In this document: positions 5,356 to 57,964 of the stretch, in pieces
Layout of the letters: every line of letters starts with the position of its first letter
Numbering within the stretch: the first letter of the stretch is position 1
Assembly (NCBI RefSeq): GCF_026626685.1
Contig: NZ_JAPNJX010000001.1
Span: 140,752 to 204,751 of the forward strand
Direction of reading: 5' to 3'
DNA length: 64,000 bases
Source: Nannocystis sp. SCPEA4
GTDB taxonomy: Bacteria > Myxococcota_A > Polyangia > Nannocystales > Nannocystaceae
Program-made: the position numbers and the translations under genes
Notes under the pieces: model-generated
The model's database searches: none
What the model was told of the DNA's origin: nothing
The model's input: the letters and a program-made list of their open reading frames with translations, nothing else

Positions 5356-6258
5356 ATGCACGACCTCTCGGGCCTGACGGCGCTCCTGGTGGTGGCCGAC
5401 AAGCGCAGCTTCACGGCCGCGGCGGCGGAGTTGCGCGTCACGCCCTCGGCAGTGAGCCAGACCGTCCGCGCGCTCGAGGAGCGCCTCGGCGTGCGGCTGC
5501 TGCAGCGGACCACGCGGAGCGTCGGCCTCACCGAGGCTGGCGCGCGCTTCGTCGCCCAGCTCCGGCCGGCGATGGCGGGCGTCCAGGCGGCCTACGAGGC
5601 GCTCGACGAGGTGCGCGGGCGGCCGGCGGGGACGCTGCGCCTCAACGTCCCGCGGGTCGCCAGCCGCTGGGTGCTGGAGCCGATCCTGGCCGCGTTCATG
5701 GCCGCGTACCCCGAGATCCGCCTCGACATCACGACCGACGACGGCTTCACCGACATCGTCGCGCAGGGCTTCGACGCCGGCATCCGGATCGGCGAGATGC
5801 TCGACAAGGACGTCGTCGCCGTCCGGCTGTCCGACGACATGCGCAGCGCGGTGGTCGGCTCGCCGGCGTACTTCGCCGCCCGTGGCAAGCCGAAGCACCC
5901 GCGCGAGCTGCTCGCGCACGAATGCATCAACTACCGTCGGGTCAGCAGCGGCGCCGTCTATCGCTGGGAGTTCACCGACAAGGGCCGAGACATCAGCCTC
6001 GCCGTCGACGGCCGGCTCGTCACCAACGAGTACGACGTCATGGTGCGCGCCGCCCTCGACGGGGTCGGCCTCGCGTACCTGCTCGAGAACTCGGTCACCG
6101 AGGCGCTGGTCGACAAGCGCCTCGTCCGCGTCCTCACCGCCTACTGCCCCCCCTTCCCCGGCCTCTTCCTCTACTACCCGAGCCGCACGCAGGTGCCGCC
6201 CAAGCTGCGCGCGCTGGTCGAGTTCCTGCGGGCCCGCCGGCGCGCCGCGGCGCGATGA
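5356..6258 (+). CDS. LysR-family transcriptional regulator
   Basis: N-terminal HTH MHDLSGLTALLVVADKRSFTAAAAELRVTPSAVSQTVRALEERLGVRLLQRTTRSV, followed by the LysR substrate-binding fold. Start ATG 5356 chosen over upstream junk Met at 5233. Divergent from SDR. Confidence 0.9.
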   Translation: MHDLSGLTALLVVADKRSFTAAAAELRVTPSAVSQTVRALEERLGVRLLQRTTRSVGLTEAGARFVAQLRPAMAGVQAAYEALDEVRGRPAGTLRLNVPRVASRWVLEPILAAFMAAYPEIRLDITTDDGFTDIVAQGFDAGIRIGEMLDKDVVAVRLSDDMRSAVVGSPAYFAARGKPKHPRELLAHECINYRRVSSGAVYRWEFTDKGRDISLAVDGRLVTNEYDVMVRAALDGVGLAYLLENSVTEALVDKRLVRVLTAYCPPFPGLFLYYPSRTQVPPKLRALVEFLRARRRAAAR

Positions 6259-6589
6259 GCTGCCCGCACGGCGGCGAGACGTCGCCGACGTGAAATTGGG
6301 TGAAAGTCGGCGGCCGCGGTCGATCCCCGATCAAGGAAGTCGCCTCGTCGCGTCCGCGAAACCGCGCCCGCGTCGCGGCGAAAAAAACCAGCGACCGCGT
6401 GTCAGGAACCGCCGCGCCCGAGGAACACCCTTCTGAAGCCGGACGCTCTCCGCAACCGGCTCGAACGAGCCCTCGCCCGTCGATAGTGGGCGTTCGCACG
6501 TCCTCCTCGCGCGGCCATTGCGGCCATTCGAGCGGACCTCGTACGCCCGAACAACCGCGCATTCCCATTGAACCATCGCAAAGGCCATC

Positions 6590-24469: not shown

Positions 24470-24545
24470 CGCCCTCATGAACATGCCTCATGAACATGTC
24501 CTTTAGAACATTATCTCAAGGACATGGCCTTTCGGACGCCCCCTC
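24470..24545. repeat. Array A of 14-bp-periodic palindromic repeats (units tcatgaACATGcc / tcatgaACATGtcc / tttagaACATTatc / tcaaggACATGgcc / tttcggACGCCccc)
   Basis: CATG/CATT cores at 24482, 24496, 24509, 24523. Divergent intergenic region between DUF1993 (-) and the RCC1 lipoprotein (+). Confidence 0.7.
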
Positions 24546-24660
24546 CGCGATGGGGCTCGTCGCTCGCCAGCGCGCACGAGCTCGGCCGGGACGGCGTGGC
24601 AACGTGAGCTCGAAGACCGAGGGCGCGCAAACGAGCGCCGAACCATGGCTCACTTCAAAC

Positions 24661-26262
24661 ATGAAGCGCGGACTCATCAGCGTGTTGTGCTTGCTCGCGT
24701 GTCAGGGCGGCCAGGAGACCACCGCGACGAGCGGCACCACGACGGCGACGACCTCCGGGGCGACGGACACGTCGACCACCACGAGCGCCACGGAGACCGC
24801 CGGGCCGGTACCGACCGGCACGAGCAGCCAGACCACAGACACGACCGCGCCCGGGACCACGGACAGCAGCACCTCCGGACCCCCGACCACCGGCACCACC
24901 GACCCGGCGATGACCGGCACGACGAGCGTCGGCGAATCGACGACCAGCACCGGATCGACCACGCTCGACCTCGAGACCACCGGCACCACCACCACCGGAC
25001 CCGACAGCTGCGGCGACGGCATCGTCGATGCCGACGAGCTCTGCGACGACGGCAACGCGACGCCGCACGACGGCTGCGAGGACGATTGCAGGCCGACCCT
25101 GCTCGATGTCCAGGGCGGCCTGGTGCACACGTGCGTGCTGTTCGGCAGCGGGGCCGTCAAGTGTTGGGGCGGAAACCCGTCCGGTGAGCTCGGCTACGGT
25201 CACACCGATGCCCTCGGCGACGAACCCGGCGAGCTGCCGACTCCCGATCTCGACCTCGGCGGCAAGGTGGTCGAGCTCGCCGCCGGCGACGCGCACACCT
25301 GCGTACGCCTGGACGACGGCGCCGTGCGCTGCTGGGGCGAGAATACCTACGGCCAGCTCGGCTATGGTCATACCGATCCCGTCGGCGGTGCACCCGGGCA
25401 AATGCCGCCACCCGACGTTCAGCTGGGCGGACCCGCCGTCGCGCTGAGCGCGGGGCTGCGACACACGTGCGCCCTGCTCGCCACCGGTGATGTGCGCTGC
25501 TGGGGCTGGAATTACTACGGCCAGCTCGGGCTCGGCCATACCGAGGACATCGGCGACGAACCCGGCGAGATGCCGCCTCCGCCCGCGCCGATCGGCGACG
25601 ACATCGAGAGCATCAGCTCCGGCTGGCACTTCAACTGCGTCACGCGGGCGGGCGGCGAGGTTCGCTGCTGGGGCAGCGATTTCGACGGCAGCCTCGGCGA
25701 CGCCGACGGCGTTGTCGACTCCCGCGGGGACGAGCCCGGCGAGCTTCCCACGCCGCCGGTGCTGGTCGGCGCACCCGTCGCCCTGCTCAGCGGCGGCCAC
25801 AGCACGGTGTGCACATTGCTGACGGACGGCGCGGTCCGGTGCTGGGGTAACGGCGAATACGGGGCGCTCGGCGCCGGGAACACCGAGGATCGCGGCCACG
25901 ATCCCGGTGACATGCCGCCGCCGGCCGTCGACCTCGACGGAGTCGGAGTTCAGCTGGTGACCCGATTCCTGCGCACCTGCGTGCGCATGGACACCGGCAA
26001 GCTCCGGTGCTGGGGCGACGCGAACGCGAACGGTGCCGCCGACCACATCGGCGACGAGCCGGGCGAGATGCCGCCGCCCGACGTCCCTCTGCCGGGATCG
26101 GTCCTGCGGGTCGGCGGAGGCCACGGTCACATGTGCGCGATCATGGTCGACGGCAACCTTCGCTGCTGGGGATACGGCATCGACGGCCAGCTCGGCCTCG
26201 GCGAGAAACAATCGGTCTATTATGATGAACTCGCCGACAAGCCGCCGATCCCGCTGTTCTGA
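24661..26262 (+). CDS. RCC1-repeat (beta-propeller) lipoprotein with N-terminal Myxococcus cysteine-rich repeat
   Basis: Signal MKRGLISVLCLLACQGG (lipobox). Thr-rich linker. DSCGDGIVDADELCDDGNATPHDGCEDDCR Cys-rich repeat. Seven RCC1-like blades (HTC.L...G.V.CWG.N..GQLG.G). Confidence 0.85.
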   Translation: MKRGLISVLCLLACQGGQETTATSGTTTATTSGATDTSTTTSATETAGPVPTGTSSQTTDTTAPGTTDSSTSGPPTTGTTDPAMTGTTSVGESTTSTGSTTLDLETTGTTTTGPDSCGDGIVDADELCDDGNATPHDGCEDDCRPTLLDVQGGLVHTCVLFGSGAVKCWGGNPSGELGYGHTDALGDEPGELPTPDLDLGGKVVELAAGDAHTCVRLDDGAVRCWGENTYGQLGYGHTDPVGGAPGQMPPPDVQLGGPAVALSAGLRHTCALLATGDVRCWGWNYYGQLGLGHTEDIGDEPGEMPPPPAPIGDDIESISSGWHFNCVTRAGGEVRCWGSDFDGSLGDADGVVDSRGDEPGELPTPPVLVGAPVALLSGGHSTVCTLLTDGAVRCWGNGEYGALGAGNTEDRGHDPGDMPPPAVDLDGVGVQLVTRFLRTCVRMDTGKLRCWGDANANGAADHIGDEPGEMPPPDVPLPGSVLRVGGGHGHMCAIMVDGNLRCWGYGIDGQLGLGEKQSVYYDELADKPPIPLF

Positions 26263-26445: not shown

Positions 26446-26916
26446 ATGAGCACGGCGATCGCGGGCGCGGTGCCGATAGCCGTCCACGTCCTCGGCGGCG
26501 GCGTGTGGATCGGCGCCATGGTGTTCAGCGTGTTCATCCTCCACCCGCGCGCCGAGCGGTTCTTCACCCGCGCCACCGAGTTCGAGGACTTCATCTTCAG
26601 CGTCGTCCACGGCGCCCGCTACAAGGTCCTCGCCGGCATCGCCGCGATCGTCGCCAGCGGCGTCGCCCTCGCCCTCGCGCACCGGGGCACCGCCGCCCCG
26701 TGGTCGTGGCTGGTCGCCGTCAAGGTCGCGCTGCTGCTGATCTCGCTGGCGCTGTTCCTCCACGTCAGCTTCACGCTGTGGCCGCGCCGCGTGTTCGCCC
26801 GCGAGGACGAGCTACCGGCGGTGCGCCGGCGCTTCTGGTGGATCGGCGTCGTCATGATCGTCTGCAACACCGCCAACATGGGCCTCGGCGTGCTCGCCCG
26901 GGTCTTGCGCGGCTAG
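26446..26916 (+). CDS. Integral membrane protein (4 TM, hypothetical)
   Basis: MSTAIAGAVPIAVHVLGGGVWIGAMVFSVFILHP...; hydrophobic segments with Trp/His, 156 aa. Confidence 0.6.
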   Translation: MSTAIAGAVPIAVHVLGGGVWIGAMVFSVFILHPRAERFFTRATEFEDFIFSVVHGARYKVLAGIAAIVASGVALALAHRGTAAPWSWLVAVKVALLLISLALFLHVSFTLWPRRVFAREDELPAVRRRFWWIGVVMIVCNTANMGLGVLARVLRG

Positions 26917-26926
26917 GAGCCCCGTG

Positions 26927-27420
26927 CCACCAGCGAGCGCCGGACTCGCAGCATGTTCGTCGCCCAGCCCATCGTCGCGCCACCAGCGAGCCCCGGACTC
27001 GCAGCATGTCGTCGCCCAGCCCATCGTCGCGCCACCAGCGAGCTTCGGACTCACAGCATATTCGTCGCCCAGCCATCGTCGCGCCACCAGCGAGCGCCGG
27101 ACTCGCAGCATGTTCGTCGCCCAGCTCTTCGTCGCGTCACCAGCGAGCCCCGGACCGCAGCATGTTCGTCGCCCAGCACATCGTCGCGTCACCAGCGAGC
27201 CCCGGGTTCGCAGCATGTTCGCCGCGCTGTCCATCGTCGCGTCACCAGCGAGCCCCGGACTCGCAGCATGTTCGCCGCCCAGCCCATCGTCGTGTCACCA
27301 GCGAGCCCCGGGTTCGCAGCATGTTCGCCGCGCTGTCCATCGTCGCGTCACCAGCGAGCCCCGGACTCGCAGCATGTTCGCCGCCCAGCACATCGTCGCG
27401 TCACCAGCGAGCGCCGGATA
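26927..27420. repeat. 53-bp tandem minisatellite, about 9.3 copies (unit ~ (c/t)caccagcgagccccggactcgcagcatgttcg(t/c)cgcccagcccatcgtcgcg)
   Basis: Unit boundaries at 26927, 26980, 27032, 27084, 27137, 27189, 27242, 27295, 27348, 27401. Units are 52 or 53 bp, ~90% identical. Every second unit of units 6 to 9 is identical, giving a higher-order structure. The period is not a multiple of 3 and frames rotate, so it is noncoding. Confidence 0.85.
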
Positions 27421-27554
27421 GGACGCCCAGAGGTCCGTCCGAGGGATGGCCGGCCCCGGCCGTCCCTCGGGCGGAATGCACCTGTGCGAAGAGACAGCCG
27501 CCATCGAAGCCCGCGACCGGCGCTCGGGCCACCCACGAGTGGGCCGTGCCTGCG

Positions 27555-27648
27555 GTCGGGGATGCGGTCCTCCGCCCATCCGCAGCGAGATGGGCCCGAC
27601 GCAGGAGGGTCCATCCGCGAGGACTGGGCGGAGGACCGCATCCCCGAC
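27555..27648. repeat. 94-nt element bounded by a perfect 19-bp inverted repeat (GTCGGGGATGCGGTCCTCC ... GGAGGACCGCATCCCCGAC), enclosing the inner hairpin GCCCATC-cgcagcgag-GATGGGC
   Basis: Seen in sequence inside a ~680-nt noncoding gap (27421..28105). Candidate structured ncRNA or MITE-like element. Confidence 0.5.
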
Positions 27649-28105
27649 CGCTCGCGAGGCGCATTCGGCAGTTCGCGAAGCACTCGCGTTCGTGCTGAGC
27701 CCTGCCTCCTCGAGGGCCTGTTCCCCGCGCGACCTGGCGAGCTCTGCTGGACGACGCCTTCATTATTGATGAGTTCGCCAGCCTCGGCGACGGCGCATTC
27801 GACCGCCCGTTCGTCGCCCCGCAAACCGCGATTGCCCCATGGGGGTGACCCCGGACCGCCCCTCCTCCATCTGCCACCACGCGTGCTCGCGGCGTTCCCC
27901 GTACCTCGATTCCACGAAATGCGATTCACGGCGGACGACGCGCGGCCCAATTATCAGGGTTTTGCGAAATCAGCGCAGATGTGATTCCTGCCGTGCGCGG
28001 CCATCATTGTCGCCCACGGCCCCCAATCGTCGAATGTGCGATGATTTTGCTTTACCTCGAGTCGGCGGAAGGGTTACCTGATTGCAACCTCCCCGAAAGG
28101 ACAAC

Positions 28106-28405
28106 ATGCGCATTTCGAAGCACAACATCGTCGCTGCGATCACGACGCTGATCATGGCCGTCTCGGGAACCTCGCTGATGAGCGGCTGCAACAAGCAGCA
28201 GACCGACACCGCGAACCCCGAGCCCGTCGCGGCCGAGCCTGCCGAGCCCGCGCCGGTCGACCCCGCCGCCGAGAACCCGCCGCCGGCCGAGCCCGCCGCC
28301 GAGACCCCGGCCGATCCGGCCGCTGCCGCCACCCCGCCGGCCGAGGCCGCCCCGCCGGCCGAGGCTCCGGCGAGCACCACGCCGGCGCCGCCCGCTCCCA
28401 AGTGA
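28106..28405 (+). CDS. Small Pro/Ala/Glu-rich lipoprotein
   Basis: AAGGA SD 5 nt before the ATG. Signal MRISKHNIVAAITTLIMAVSGTSLMSGC (lipobox), low-GC signal region, then a PAEP-rich tail. 99 aa. Confidence 0.6.
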   Translation: MRISKHNIVAAITTLIMAVSGTSLMSGCNKQQTDTANPEPVAAEPAEPAPVDPAAENPPPAEPAAETPADPAAAATPPAEAAPPAEAPASTTPAPPAPK

Positions 28406-28432: not shown

Positions 28433-28530
28433 TCGCGACATGTCCTTCGCGCCATGCGTACATTCCACCCTGGCTGAATGGACGGAAGCAGGGACATGGC
28501 CTTCGGGCCATGTCCCTTTTTACATGCGAC
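28433..28530. repeat. Array B of 14-bp-periodic palindromic repeats (7 units), includes the perfect hairpin GGGACATGGCC-TTCG-GGCCATGTCCC (28491..28516)
   Basis: CATG cores at 28439, 28453, 28495, 28509, 28523 (two degenerate units in between). Fills the whole convergent intergenic region. The last unit supplies the ATG-TAA end of the minus-strand kinase. Confidence 0.75.
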
Positions 28531-50253: not shown

Positions 50254-52506
50254 TTACGGGGTGCGGACCGTCGCGGCCAGTCGGTAGATGAACTGGGCGT
50301 TGGGGACGTTCTGCACCGCGTCGGAGGCACGGACCTCCACGTAGTACGTACCGGCGGCGAGGTTGTGCGCGCCGGCGTCGCGCGGCACGTTGCCGGTGCC
50401 GTCGATCATCGAGCAGAAGCCGCGGCCGTCGTCGTCGTCGTTGGAGAGCTGGACGCCCATGGCGTTGAACAGCGTGATCTCCGAGTCGATGCCGTTCGAC
50501 TCGCAGGTCTCGACGGCGCGGTCGCCCTCGAAGAGCTCGAGGCGCAGCGAGCTGCCGGCCACCGGCACGTTGATGGCGTAGTAGTCCTTGTCGGCCTCGA
50601 GCGCGTGGTCGCCGAACACGAACACGTCGGTGCTGTCGTCGAGGTTGAGGCTCGCGCTGGCGATGTCCTCGTTCGGCTCGGCCTCCATGCCGTTGTCGCC
50701 GAGGGTGACCGCCTCGAACAGGTAGCCGGGGACCAGGCCGCTGTTGTCGAACTCGCCGACCTGGGCGTAGAAGGTCCCGGCCGGGACCGGGAACACCAGC
50801 GCGCTGCACAGGCTGATGCCCGCGTTCGAGGTGTCGGCGATGATGGCCACGTTGTTGTTGTCGAACAGGCGCAGGGCCATGTCCGCGCCGGTGCAGTCGT
50901 TCGGCTTCGAGAAGGTCTCGAAGCGCATGAACTGCGGGGCGGCCAGATCGAAGCGGTAGCGGTCGACGTCGGCGCTGGGCAGGATGCTGCCGGTGTACGT
51001 CTCGGTCCCCGTCGCCACCAGGCCGGTCGCGTCGGCCTGGGCGTTGGTGTTGTTGGGCTCGATCTCGCCGGTCGCGCCCTCGAACAGGCAGACATCGCTG
51101 CAGCCGTCGCCGTTGGCCACGTTGCCGTCGTCGCAGGTCTCGCCGGGCCCGACCGCGCCGTCACCACAGACCACCGGCAGGAGCTTGATGTCGAGGAAGT
51201 AGCCGCCGGCGATCGCGCCGTTGTCCTGCCAGTCGATGACGCGCACGTAGACGGTCTCGCCCGCCGCGAGCCCGAAGCCGGTGAGCAGCGAGCAGCTGTT
51301 GATGCCGCTCTCGTCGTCGGTGGCGAGCAGCTGGTTGGTGGCCGAGCGGACGTCGATCACGGTGTCGATCGTCTGGCAGGTGCCCGGGCCGCCGGCGCCG
51401 AAGGTCTCGAGGCGCAGCTCGACGTAGCCGGGTCCCGGGTTCTGCACGGCGAAGAAGTCGTCGTCGCCGGCCGGATCGATCTTGGCGCTGATGAAGGTAT
51501 TCGCGGTGAACGGACCCTCGGCGTTCGCCAGCAGGAAGTCGTTGACGCCGATCGCGACCATCGCGTCGTCGTTGGGCTCCGACTCGTCGATCGCGGTGAG
51601 GCAACCCGAGAGGTCGAAGCCGCAATCGGCGTTGCAACCGAGCGTGCCGAAGTCGGCGCCCTGGCTGGCACAGGTCTGGCCGCCGAGATCGGCGCCGTCA
51701 CACTGCTCGTCGCCGCCGATGGCACCGTCGCCGCAGGCGTTGCACATGCTGGTGTCGAGCGCGGCGCAGTCGGCCGCACACCCGAGCGTGCCGCTGTCGA
51801 AGCCCTCCGAGAGGCAGTCGGCGCCGCCGAGGTCGGTGCCGTCGCACACCTCGATGCCCTGGATCGTGTTGTCGCCGCAGGCGAAGCACGCCGAGGTGTC
51901 GAACACGCAGGAGTCGGCCGTACAGGCCAGCTCGCCGCCGCTCATGCCCTGCGAGACACAGTCCTCGCCGCCGAGCTCGGTGCCGTCACACTGCTCCTGA
52001 CCTTCGATCGCCCCGTTGCCGCACGTGGCCAGCACACACTGCGAGACGTCGAACTCGCTGCAGTCGGCCGCACACGCCAGAGTGCCGCCGTCGAAGCCCT
52101 GCATCGCGCAGTCCTGACCCGCGAGCTCGGCACCGTCGCACACCTCGCCGTCGTCGAGCACGCCGTTGCCGCAGTTGTTCGGCCCGGTCGTCGTCGTCGT
52201 CGTGTCGGTGGTGGTGTCGGTCGTCGTGTCGGTCGTCGTGTCGGTCGTCGGGTCCGTGGTGCTGGTCGTCGTCTCCGTCGCCGTGACGGGCGTGGTGTCT
52301 GTGTCGTCGGTCGTGCCGGTCGTCGTCGTCGTCGTCGGGTCGGTCGTCGTGGGCACCCCGGTGGTCGGGTCCGGCTCCGTGGTCGAGGCGTCGGTGGTGG
52401 TCGACGTGTCCTGATTGGAGTCCGTGGTCGCGGTGCCGTCGTCGCCGCACGCGCTCAGGGTCGCGATCGCAGCAAGGAGTGAAGTGGATAGAGCATTCCT
52501 GCGCAT
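50254..52506 (-). CDS. Large lipoprotein with six Myxococcus cysteine-rich repeats and two PPC (pre-peptidase C-terminal)-like domains
   Basis: Signal MRRNALSTSLLAAIATLSACGDDG. Repeats NCGNGVLDDGEVCDG, CGNGAIEGQEQCDG, CGDGAVGPGETCDDGNVANGDGCSDVC. PPC-like EPNDD...DDDFFAV and EPNNT...DVDRYRF. Confidence 0.8.
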   Translation of the reverse strand: MRRNALSTSLLAAIATLSACGDDGTATTDSNQDTSTTTDASTTEPDPTTGVPTTTDPTTTTTTGTTDDTDTTPVTATETTTSTTDPTTDTTTDTTTDTTTDTTTTTTGPNNCGNGVLDDGEVCDGAELAGQDCAMQGFDGGTLACAADCSEFDVSQCVLATCGNGAIEGQEQCDGTELGGEDCVSQGMSGGELACTADSCVFDTSACFACGDNTIQGIEVCDGTDLGGADCLSEGFDSGTLGCAADCAALDTSMCNACGDGAIGGDEQCDGADLGGQTCASQGADFGTLGCNADCGFDLSGCLTAIDESEPNDDAMVAIGVNDFLLANAEGPFTANTFISAKIDPAGDDDFFAVQNPGPGYVELRLETFGAGGPGTCQTIDTVIDVRSATNQLLATDDESGINSCSLLTGFGLAAGETVYVRVIDWQDNGAIAGGYFLDIKLLPVVCGDGAVGPGETCDDGNVANGDGCSDVCLFEGATGEIEPNNTNAQADATGLVATGTETYTGSILPSADVDRYRFDLAAPQFMRFETFSKPNDCTGADMALRLFDNNNVAIIADTSNAGISLCSALVFPVPAGTFYAQVGEFDNSGLVPGYLFEAVTLGDNGMEAEPNEDIASASLNLDDSTDVFVFGDHALEADKDYYAINVPVAGSSLRLELFEGDRAVETCESNGIDSEITLFNAMGVQLSNDDDDGRGFCSMIDGTGNVPRDAGAHNLAAGTYYVEVRASDAVQNVPNAQFIYRLAATVRTP

Positions 52507-56345: not shown

Positions 56346-56430
56346 GACGGACATGCTCGAACGTCCATGTCTTCTTGGCCATGTCTTTAAAAACATGCCT
56401 GAACGAGCATGTCCTGGAGCGCATCAGGTG
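56346..56430. repeat. Array H of 14-bp-periodic palindromic repeats (6 units; cggACATGctcg / aacgtcCATGtctt / cttggcCATGtctt / taaaaaCATGcctg / aacgagCATGtcct / ggagcgCATCaggt)
   Basis: Cores at 56352, 56366, 56380, 56394, 56408, 56422, strictly 14 apart. Convergent intergenic region; the last unit overlaps the histidine kinase stop. Confidence 0.75.
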
Positions 56431-57404: not shown

Positions 57405-57468
57405 CGCCCGCCCTCCCGCGCGCCGGCGCGGCCATGACCTGTCTCTTCGGCCAGGGACACCCTCGCGC

Positions 57469-57630
57469 GTCCTCGTGCCGCGACCGGGGCATTTCGAGCA
57501 GTCCTCGCGCCGCGATCCGACAGGCTGGTAACGCACGAGGAGGGCGCAACTCGGGCGATATGCAACCGACGAGCAACGCGGCCAGCGTGGCGGAGAACCA
57601 GCGAGGGCTGCTCGAAATGCCCCGGTCGCG
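57469..57630. repeat. 162-nt element bounded by a perfect 23-bp inverted repeat (CGCGACCGGGGCATTTCGAGCAG ... CTGCTCGAAATGCCCCGGTCGCG)
   Basis: Seen in sequence in the 560-nt noncoding gap upstream of the histidine kinase. Candidate MITE or long-stem ncRNA. Confidence 0.5.
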
Positions 57631-57964
57631 GCACCAGGCCACGCCGGCTGCGCTGCGCGCCGGTTGCATGCTGCCCGGGCGGCGCCGGCCTCGCGCCTGG
57701 AGAGGGCGCGTCGAGGCGCCCCGGTCGCGGCGCTGGCTCTCTCGCGGCGTCTCGCGCGGCCGCGGCCCCCCGCGCCGGGGGGCGGTCCCGGTCGTGGGCG
57801 GAGGAGAGCGCGCGCTCGGCTGTCGGCCGCGGGTCGGTCACGCCGCGGCAAGCGTAGCGCCGGGTCGCGACGGCGCCGCCGCGACCCCGGGCCGGACCCC
57901 TCGGAGCGGCCCCGATTCGCAACTGCGCAGGCGAACGCGCGTCACCCGGCGGGTGCGAGCCGCG

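Follow-up and report, generated by a model that had tools for sequence, protein, structure and literature searches.

Several families of bacterial repeats, among them REP/BIME, REPIN-RAYT, ERIC and Correia/NEMIS, are intergenic and dispersed, form long single-strand hairpins, and can affect the stability or the termination of co-transcribed mRNA. In these families the hairpin is the whole element, made of terminal inverted repeats (TIRs) or of paired REPs, the copy number is high, and a cognate transposase is known or suspected. Of another kind are the MIRU-VNTR (variable-number tandem repeat) loci of Mycobacterium tuberculosis, reportedly intergenic arrays of ~51-53-bp tandem units which vary in copy number between strains, at several dispersed loci of a high-G+C genome (Supply et al. 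1997, 2000). The BOX elements of Streptococcus pneumoniae are composite, boxA-(boxB)n-boxC, and form a stable stem-loop when transcribed, to the folding of which the variable module adds little (PMC3049150). Finally, msr/msd-like repeats devoid of reverse transcriptase (RT) were described in Nannocystis (Ne160; Lampson and Rice 1997, summarised in PMC6868368), together with a putatively retrotransposed partial msd in N. exedens (Lampson et al. 2002, summarised in PMC6868368), and retroposition was proposed for N. exedens in both studies (Lampson and Rice 1997, Lampson et al. 2002; PMC6868368). Here we analyse a tandem array of ~53-bp units followed by two long hairpins, in a 64-kb stretch of the Nannocystis sp. 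SCPEA4 genome (hereafter the window, 64,000 nucleotides, 71.5% G+C). We conclude that array and hairpins (26917-27684) are probably one copy of an interspersed repeat which is modular, present in few copies and restricted to the genus Nannocystis.

Architecture of the element

The element is found between a gene for a CopD-like membrane protein and a lipoprotein gene. Its parts, in window coordinates, are the following:

26917..27418, + strand: minisatellite module, 9.3 units of 52/53 bp (Tandem Repeats Finder, TRF, and unit dissection)
27384..27420, + strand: unit motif of ~37 nt, CCCAGCACATCGTCGCGTCAC-AGCGAGCGCCGGA, last core-proximal copy (alignments)
27402..27684, + strand: structured core, ~280 nt, with a sharp right boundary just past GCGAAGCA (alignments)
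27409..27525, + strand: domain 1, a 9-bp stem of GAGCGCCGG (27409-27417) and CCGGCGCTC (27517-27525) which encloses hairpin 1
27434..27475, + strand: hairpin 1, a 20-bp stem (27434-27453/27456-27475) with a CCCC loop and three G.U pairs
27536..27667, + strand: hairpin 2, a 132-nt stem-loop with a nested inner hairpin at ~27585-27618

From left to right, the architecture is thus (~53-bp unit)n, a stem enclosing hairpin 1, a linker, the 132-nt hairpin 2 and a short tail. The predicted folding energy of the core is -201 kcal/mol, with a z-score of -10.3 for the + strand and -7.5 for the - strand. The arms of hairpin 1 have 90% complementarity at the DNA level and, thanks to G.U pairs, pair completely in + strand RNA (-43.5 kcal/mol, z = -5.1). 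Hairpin 2 is perfect over 24 bp (27555-27578/27625-27648) and widens to arms of 43 nt at 86% complementarity; none of 200 shuffled sequences was as stable (-118.4 kcal/mol, z = -12.7). An initial annotation, made from the letters of the window, had noticed both hairpins, the nested one included, and these are real, but it had drawn them too short, the first as a 13-bp stem at ~27441..27470 and the second as a perfect 19-bp inverted repeat closing 27555..27648. It had also treated 680 nt following the array as one structured, gene-free region. Only the first ~265 nt of it belong to the element, the rest being a gene remnant and the upstream region of the lipoprotein gene, as detailed below.

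Copies at unrelated sites

A 21-nt segment of the hairpin 2 arm was searched, as an exact match, in one genome per species (GTDB representatives). In N. radixulma, palindromic double matches were obtained at two sites on contig 23 (L010), at a second contig 24 site (L011) and at the orthologous L015. This species has at least four copies, in intergenic sites unrelated to each other, and at each site the array has been amplified locally. The genes next to the copies are unrelated genes of housekeeping type, encoding UDPGP, PGI, MatE, DUF1963, MeaB, a hydrolase and an LRR protein. Single-arm matches in Oscillospiraceae, Ilumatobacteraceae, Phenylobacterium, Planctomycetaceae and Vicinamibacteria had neither a palindromic partner nor a core, and were discarded as due to chance. 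All copies share one architecture, a short array, hairpin 1, linker, hairpin 2 and a tail GGCAGTTCGCGAAGCA, at which similarity ends abruptly. The array starts within a few nt of the stop codon of the preceding gene at two independent loci, those that follow copD-like and meaB.

Cores were compared by nhmmer profiles. Six copies of the radixulma type are 92-97% identical to each other, with a star-like, partly mosaic relationship, and ~78-82% identical to a diverged copy in N. exedens. The latter (L036) is placed in the UDPGP-PGI spacer (nhmmer E = 5.6e-45, 79-82% identity to every radixulma-type copy), and is preceded by three degenerate ~97-nt repeats containing the unit motif. No copy was found in the DUF1963-MeaB spacer of N. 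exedens, whereas N. radixulma has copy c23b there. As N. exedens has a diverged copy, the family is older than the exedens/radixulma split. Judging from the sequences, it later expanded, or was homogenised, in the radixulma/pusilla lineage, and the window copy belongs to that later phase.

Sites lacking the element were also found. In L035 (PGI 90-91% identity) the UDPGP-PGI spacer is 121 nt long, against 870 nt with copy c23a in N. radixulma. This empty site and those of L009 and L006, described below, are too diverged to place exact junctions. Outside the genus genomes, no match was obtained in plasmid and phage collections (blastn), nor in IMG/VR with both hairpin patterns, and the hairpin 1 pattern gave 0 matches in metagenomes. 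The array motif gave 15 single matches in metagenomes, of just 21-30 nt each, which we attribute to chance.

The search for further copies of the inverted-repeat arms had been proposed in the initial annotation, and yielded at least four N. radixulma sites and the diverged N. exedens copy. The lack of other genomic copies, which the annotation counted among the refuting outcomes, is not what was observed; more distant relatives do have these loci without the element. Among the three explanations that had been offered, a remnant of a mobile element came closest: copies are dispersed, and missing in distant relatives, but the window holds a whole copy, not a remnant.

Some particularities of the contig 23 copies were recorded. 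Copies c23a (L010 836-1216, +) and c23b (5974-6358, -) are inverted and bracket a 4.8-kb segment (pgi, matE, DUF1963), a disposition which resembles composite transposon ends; N. exedens has the pgi-side copy alone. Directly after c23a comes a perfect 21-bp tandem repeat, CAGGCCGCCGCGAACCACGAC, in 3.8 copies (L010 1223-1302), which resembles the ~20 nt following the right end of c23b. In all three lineages, CTGCTATAAAGC is present 8-9 nt upstream of the pgi start (L010 1370-1392, L035 522-540, L036 6982-7000). It may be a -10-like element, which would imply a very short leader.

Conservation of the fold

No double changes are present among the six close copies. When the N. exedens copy was added, eight pairs appeared in which both sides had changed with pairing preserved: hairpin 1 has two of them, the hairpin 2 stem five and the inner hairpin one. 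Shuffled controls gave 1.2 +/- 1.0 such pairs (0/500 reached 8), and slid structures gave 0 to 3. Hairpin 1, whose sequence is identical in the six close copies, also shows two wobble-preserving changes in N. exedens. The domain 1 stem is unchanged and 100% paired in 7/7 copies, and the perfect stem of hairpin 2 reaches ~32 bp in N. pusilla. Between N. exedens and c23a, the core is 78.3% identical (82.6% at paired and 68.3% at unpaired positions), against 77.6% for the four-fold sites of the adjacent pgi at the same two loci. By this comparison, the core sequence drifts at about the neutral rate while its fold stays maintained. Within the six close copies, variable columns amount to 13/179 in the hairpins and 21/96 elsewhere (p = 0.0009).

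The fold is asymmetric. All 6 wobble appositions of the helices are G.U when read on the + strand, and none is A.C, and the one-sided changes which keep a pair likewise go through + strand G.U. The ~280-nt fold as modelled, with its two hairpin domains on one strand, is apparently maintained by compensating mutations, and corresponds to no known RNA family. The Rfam scan suggested in the initial annotation brought no family: a search of Rfam 15 with three copies, at E <= 10, returned only eukaryotic microRNA-precursor models far below threshold, which are generic hairpin matches.

Complementary arms may also be a property of the DNA. A palindromic DNA element of the REP/BIME/REPIN type would act as cruciforms, or as sites for gyrase, a nucleoid protein or a RAYT-type transposase on single-stranded DNA, and its arms would be kept complementary by template-switch or gene conversion, not by selection on an RNA. 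An intergenic, dispersed element whose stem has 24 bp of perfect pairing, and ~32 bp of it in N. pusilla, agrees with this, and arm-to-arm correction would predict compensatory changes; mosaic variants among the copies (columns 171, 195, 206 and 222) suggest that inter-copy conversion occurs. We nevertheless hold this explanation to be unlikely. The six G.U wobbles are on one strand, present in all close copies and never corrected to Watson-Crick pairs, and domain 1 and the non-palindromic linker belong to the conserved unit. Moreover no RAYT or IS200-like gene was met, although no genome-wide look for RAYT was made, and 4 copies were found, when REPINs usually count tens to hundreds.

Could each copy be a gene? 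A family of genes for a trans-acting small RNA (sRNA), duplicated to several loci with their own promoters, the array being incidental, would account for a conserved structure with covariation, for the strand bias and for a ~300-nt unit with defined ends. Copy c24b is antisense to both its neighbours, and therefore cannot depend on read-through. On the other hand, no sigma-70-like promoter was found in or upstream of the element, no U-tract terminator and no Rfam family were detected, and the precise copying of a 300-nt gene to new intergenic sites would still require a mobility mechanism. For these reasons we judge an sRNA family distinctly unlikely. A canonical intrinsic terminator was also ruled out: the terminator scan detects 28490-28517 but neither hairpin of the element. 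As for the sRNA locus evoked in the initial annotation, its RNA-like structure is backed by the 8 compensatory pairs and the + strand G.U pairs, but an sRNA or lipoprotein regulator specific to this locus is unlikely, because the element adjoins unrelated genes elsewhere.

The minisatellite array

TRF reports the array at 26928-27418 (period 53, 9.3 copies, 89% matches, score 758), in agreement with the ~9.3 units of 52 or 53 bp at ~90% identity counted initially. The 32-nt core of the unit occurs 7 times with at most 3 mismatches, against 0 in 100 shuffles, and cutting the array at the anchor CACCAGCGAG gives ten units, each of 52 or 53 bp. The two-unit, higher-order structure also described at first was found again: units 6 and 8 are identical, 2 positions distinguish unit 7 from unit 9, and the 106-bp repeat that they form (units 6-7 and 8-9) is 97% identical. 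The array starts directly 3' of the copD-like stop codon (26916), and the first 11 nt after this codon, GAGCCCCGTGC, look like a truncated unit.

The arrays of all loci have in common a motif of ~37 nt (C-CAGCACATCGTCGCGTCAC-AGCGAGCGCCGGA), the rest of the unit being a locus-specific filler. Checking the copy number of the 53-mer in relatives, as had been advised, revealed variation between three species at the orthologous site: 9.3 units in the window (89% matches), 5.8 in N. radixulma (98%) and a degenerate remnant in N. pusilla. The N. radixulma units at this site (L001) are another variant than those of the window, and are 98% alike among themselves. As the window, L001 and L002 (N. pusilla) arrays differ in this way, copy number varies and units are homogenised per locus. 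Elsewhere, the formats are 52 bp x 2.3 (100% matches), 53 bp x 2.3, and degenerate units of 128-164 bp; since formats are locus-specific, each array was amplified independently at its site. A small hairpin GCGAG...CTCGC and a CATG, attributed initially to each unit, are present in most of the window units, not in all, and in none of the units of the other copies, so that they are not a conserved trait.

Two other identities were considered for the array and dismissed. A protein-coding repeat is ruled out by the 52/53-bp period and by the lack of signal in G+C at third codon positions (GC3). A CRISPR array is ruled out as well: whole 53-bp units follow each other head to tail, without unique spacers.

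The same locus in relatives, and a lost methyltransferase gene

The surroundings of the element in the window are the following:

26446..26916, + strand: gene for a CopD-like membrane protein, 156 aa, upstream flank (GC3 ~1.0)
27700..27832, + strand: decayed methyltransferase C-terminus, ~44 codons, outside the element (tblastn, DNA alignment)
27838..28105, + strand: the lipoprotein gene's own upstream region (promoter and 5' untranslated region, UTR), outside the element (BLAST to L009 and L008, alignments)
28106..28405, + strand: gene for a Pro/Ala-rich lipoprotein, 99 aa, lipobox LMSGC, downstream flank
28490-28517: canonical terminator of the lipoprotein gene, detected by the terminator scan

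The 156-aa CopD-like protein is 99% identical to that of N. radixulma and 97% to that of N. pusilla, which places the window proteins in Nannocystis. In both species (L001 and L002, respectively) the gene order is GMC oxidoreductase, DUF1993, (RCC1 protein), copD-like, lipoprotein, kinase, nth and vault-like protein. The copD-like and lipoprotein genes are separated by 1189 nt in the window, against 1025 nt in L001 and 1058 nt in L002. GC3 is 0.92-1.0 in both flanking genes and flat in every frame from 26917 to ~28105. Because the frame-specific signal is high in the flanks and flat in between, the gap 26917-28105 is non-coding. The absence of any credible open reading frame (ORF), noted initially, is therefore correct as regards GC3 in every frame, with the reserve that the stretch includes a methyltransferase pseudogene remnant.

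This remnant was recognised through more distant relatives. In L008 (CopD-like 89% identity), an intact gene for a 240-aa S-adenosylmethionine-dependent methyltransferase (Pfam Methyltransf_25/11/12/23) separates the copD-like and lipoprotein genes. With its last 44 residues, tblastn matched L001 7087-7218 (68% identity, E = 4e-17) and window 27714-27812 (E = 2e-5), and the DNA alignment to L008 extends to the ancestral stop region at ~27830. On the basis of these alignments the gap has three parts, the element (26917-27684), the methyltransferase remnant (~27700-27832) and the lipoprotein upstream region (27838-28105). Array and hairpins stand where the copD-methyltransferase spacer and ~590 bp of methyltransferase coding sequence were, and the element thus occupies the place of the 5' four-fifths of that gene. 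A derivation of the array or the hairpins from the methyltransferase gene was ruled out, as there is no similarity beyond the C-terminal remnant.

3' of the array, the window, L001 and L002 can be aligned throughout, with mean identities of 94.7% and 89.3%, near those of third codon positions in the flanking genes (97% and 91-94%). Conservation of the spacer is patchy, high over the hairpins, lowest at ~27685-27800 and high again by the lipoprotein start. The least conserved part is the methyltransferase remnant, directly to the right of the element. In L009 (CopD-like 84% identity) and L006 (80%), the copD-lipoprotein synteny is kept with a spacer of ~430 nt. No array and no hairpins are present in these two spacers, and only the part matching window 27838-28105 can be aligned.

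The region 27838-28105, kept in relatives without the element, is where G+C falls to 57%. Within it GATGATTTTGCTTTACC (28025-28056), ~55 nt 5' of the lipoprotein start, is conserved in L001, L002, L008, L009 and L006, the most remote of the syntenic relatives included. This conservation makes it a likely part of the lipoprotein gene promoter or leader.

These data bear on the notion of a regulator specific to the locus, either a phase-variable spacer, as the initial annotation had it, or a 5'-UTR riboregulator of the lipoprotein gene. The array copy number does differ between close species, and the element is upstream of the lipoprotein gene and co-oriented with it. The array ends 687 nt 5' of the start codon, however, with the pseudogene remnant in between, and its 52/53-bp steps are not between promoter elements. 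The promoter-proximal 270 nt are conserved independently, being retained in relatives without the element. With the element adjoining unrelated genes elsewhere, the notion is already largely refuted, and we consider it extremely improbable.

Two neighbouring genes deserve mention. In the window and N. radixulma, a gene for a 590-aa protein with RCC1 repeats and Cys-rich repeats (window 24490-26262) lies between DUF1993 and copD-like; N. pusilla lacks it, and has these two genes 181 nt apart (L002 5820-6000). A 906-aa protein (window 30707-33427) has a major-vault-protein shoulder domain (PF11978) and a faint Vault_3 match, and is kept in both relatives.

Comparison with known repeats

By its architecture and behaviour, the element seems to have its closest analogue, although not a homologue, in the pneumococcal BOX element. 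Both are composite intergenic dispersed repeats in which one module of ~45-53 bp is in tandem in variable number, the copy number differing between strains for BOX and between species here, and in both a stable fold is formed, in our case by the part outside the array. Arrays of 9.3, 5.8, 2.3 and 2.3 units, plus the longer-period variants, are carried by one and the same core at at least four loci. Differences are also apparent. BOX has TIRs, target-site duplications and more than 100 copies, when neither feature was found in the Nannocystis element and its copies are at least 4. The variable module is terminal in the latter and lies between end modules in BOX. The Nannocystis core is larger (~280 nt), as G+C-rich as its genome, from another phylum and without sequence relationship to BOX. 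Homology to boxA, boxB or boxC is indeed not expected, because of the G+C contents (71% vs 40%) and of the different phyla.

With MIRU-VNTR loci the element shares tandem units in the 40-100-bp range, multiple intergenic loci and copy-number polymorphism, as well as a frequent orientation along the flanking genes and arrays starting near the upstream stop codon. MIRUs are arrays alone, with short ORFs coupled to their neighbours, unlike the Nannocystis arrays in which 52- and 53-bp units are mixed, no GC3 frame signal is seen, and every array abuts a core. Compared to REP, REPIN, ERIC and Correia elements, a long hairpin is present, but it is internal to a larger non-palindromic unit, no enzyme was found, and just 4 copies are detected by exact 21-mer in N. 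radixulma. Among the hallmarks of miniature inverted-repeat transposable elements, TIRs and AT-richness are lacking and no target-site duplication is evident. By analogy, the element is best filed as a new structured repeat family, BOX/MIRU/REPIN-like in kind.

The msDNA-like repeats of N. exedens resemble the element in being RT-less, duplicated, hairpin-bearing, chromosomal and from the same genus, a likeness in their descriptions. We considered a retron-related, RT-less repeat in which hairpin 2 is msd-like and domain 1 msr-like, copied by an RT acting in trans and integrated as cDNA. In its favour are the genus, which is the same, the copy in N. exedens, and the occurrence of duplicated repeats and a 132-nt hairpin with no RT close by. 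The + strand G.U bias, and ends which are sharp but lack TIRs, are in keeping with an RNA intermediate. From the end of the domain 1 stem to the right end there are ~158 nt, near 160, a flexible count which is weak evidence. Against a retron, no RT ORF lies downstream, where the pseudogene remnant and the lipoprotein gene are found, and no retron RT motif (YxDD with NAxxH or VTG) was present in the six frames of the window, L010, L011, L015 and L002. The putative a1/a2 closing helix is of 5 bp, 88.6% paired and without covariation, and the candidate branching G is G, A or T among copies (alignment column 26). A relation to retrons is, on balance, very unlikely. More doubtful still is its fullest version, in which the element is a ~300-nt RNA retroposon, an orphan msr-msd-like unit served by an RT in trans, integrated at gene ends and the same as the 1997 repeat of Lampson and Rice. 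If true, this would make it a bacterial SINE-like, non-autonomous element, its fold selected at the RNA level and its 5' minisatellite arising in copying.

Proposed history and function

Returning to the modular interspersed repeat that we favour, several observations weigh against it. At the ends of the copies, no TIRs were found, the left end ...GCGAGCGCCGGA and the right end ...GGCAGTTCGCGAAGCA not being inverted copies, and the flanks of 5 copies show no obvious direct repeat suggestive of a target-site duplication. Neither next to any copy nor in the window was a transposase, an integrase or an RT seen. Because none of these signs was found, mobility is deduced from the distribution of the copies only. 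Few copies are counted, 4 in a single genome and these by exact 21-mer only, and the orientation relative to neighbouring genes is sense in just 3/4 paralogous copies, which is not significant. The array itself is probably dispensable, since that of N. pusilla has decayed. Concerning the RNA, no U-run follows either hairpin of the element in the terminator scan, the stems being followed by AATGCACC and GCAGTTCG. All 8 compensatory pairs derive from one diverged sequence, and a long DNA palindrome can keep its arms in step by template-switch or gene conversion, with no RNA under selection. Lastly, the comparison of stems with unpaired positions hinges on the predicted structure of the linker, p ranging from 0.0007 to 0.5.

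We infer the means of spread and the function of the element as follows. Its copying into the copD-lipoprotein spacer would date from the common ancestor that the window strain shares with N. pusilla and N. radixulma. The 5' part of the methyltransferase gene may have been lost at insertion, or by a later deletion halting at the essential copD-like stop codon. The minisatellite would have arisen from the left-end module as a side effect of slippage during replication or of unequal recombination, as for boxB in BOX. The element would act single-stranded, on the + strand, and likeliest as a read-through or own transcript with two very stable hairpin domains. These domains may be RNA-level structures, whether a 3'-end barrier, a stabiliser or insulator, or an RNA bound by a trans-acting copying factor.

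Under the same hypothesis, an unexplained patch of repeats and hairpins becomes a defined family of elements, with boundaries, a consensus structure and a profile with which genomes can be searched, and the methyltransferase provides a concrete example of gene loss at the insertion of an element. The strand-asymmetric fold, which goes with none of the known RNA families and with no known transposase or RT, is a candidate either for a novel structured RNA or for a novel mode of mobility. As RT-less msDNA-like repeats were reported in this same genus and never explained, the family offers a testable substrate for that old question. The array is a ready VNTR marker for the typing of Nannocystis strains.

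Other repeats in the window

A second long hairpin was noticed in an intergenic position at 57465-57644, with 44-nt arms at 91% complementarity and a 92-nt loop (-124.5 kcal/mol, z = -8.0). It is not another copy of the element, its sequence being unrelated to hairpin 2. At 51679-52147, tandem repeats of ~144-150 bp (2.6-2.9 copies, ~70% matches) are followed by GTC-rich short repeats (52185-52351); together these are probably a repetitive coding region of the minus strand.

Small GACATG...CATGTC hairpins occur near gene ends, at 28493-28514, 40899-40934, 40983-41018, 46617-46638 and 56350-56385. These 5 occurrences compare with 0.05 expected, and 0/100 shuffles reached 5. At least one of them is followed by a T-run, and further ones were found in L001, L002, L009, L011, L015 and L036. 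From their sequence and position, they look like a separate, SPRITE-like family of terminator repeats.

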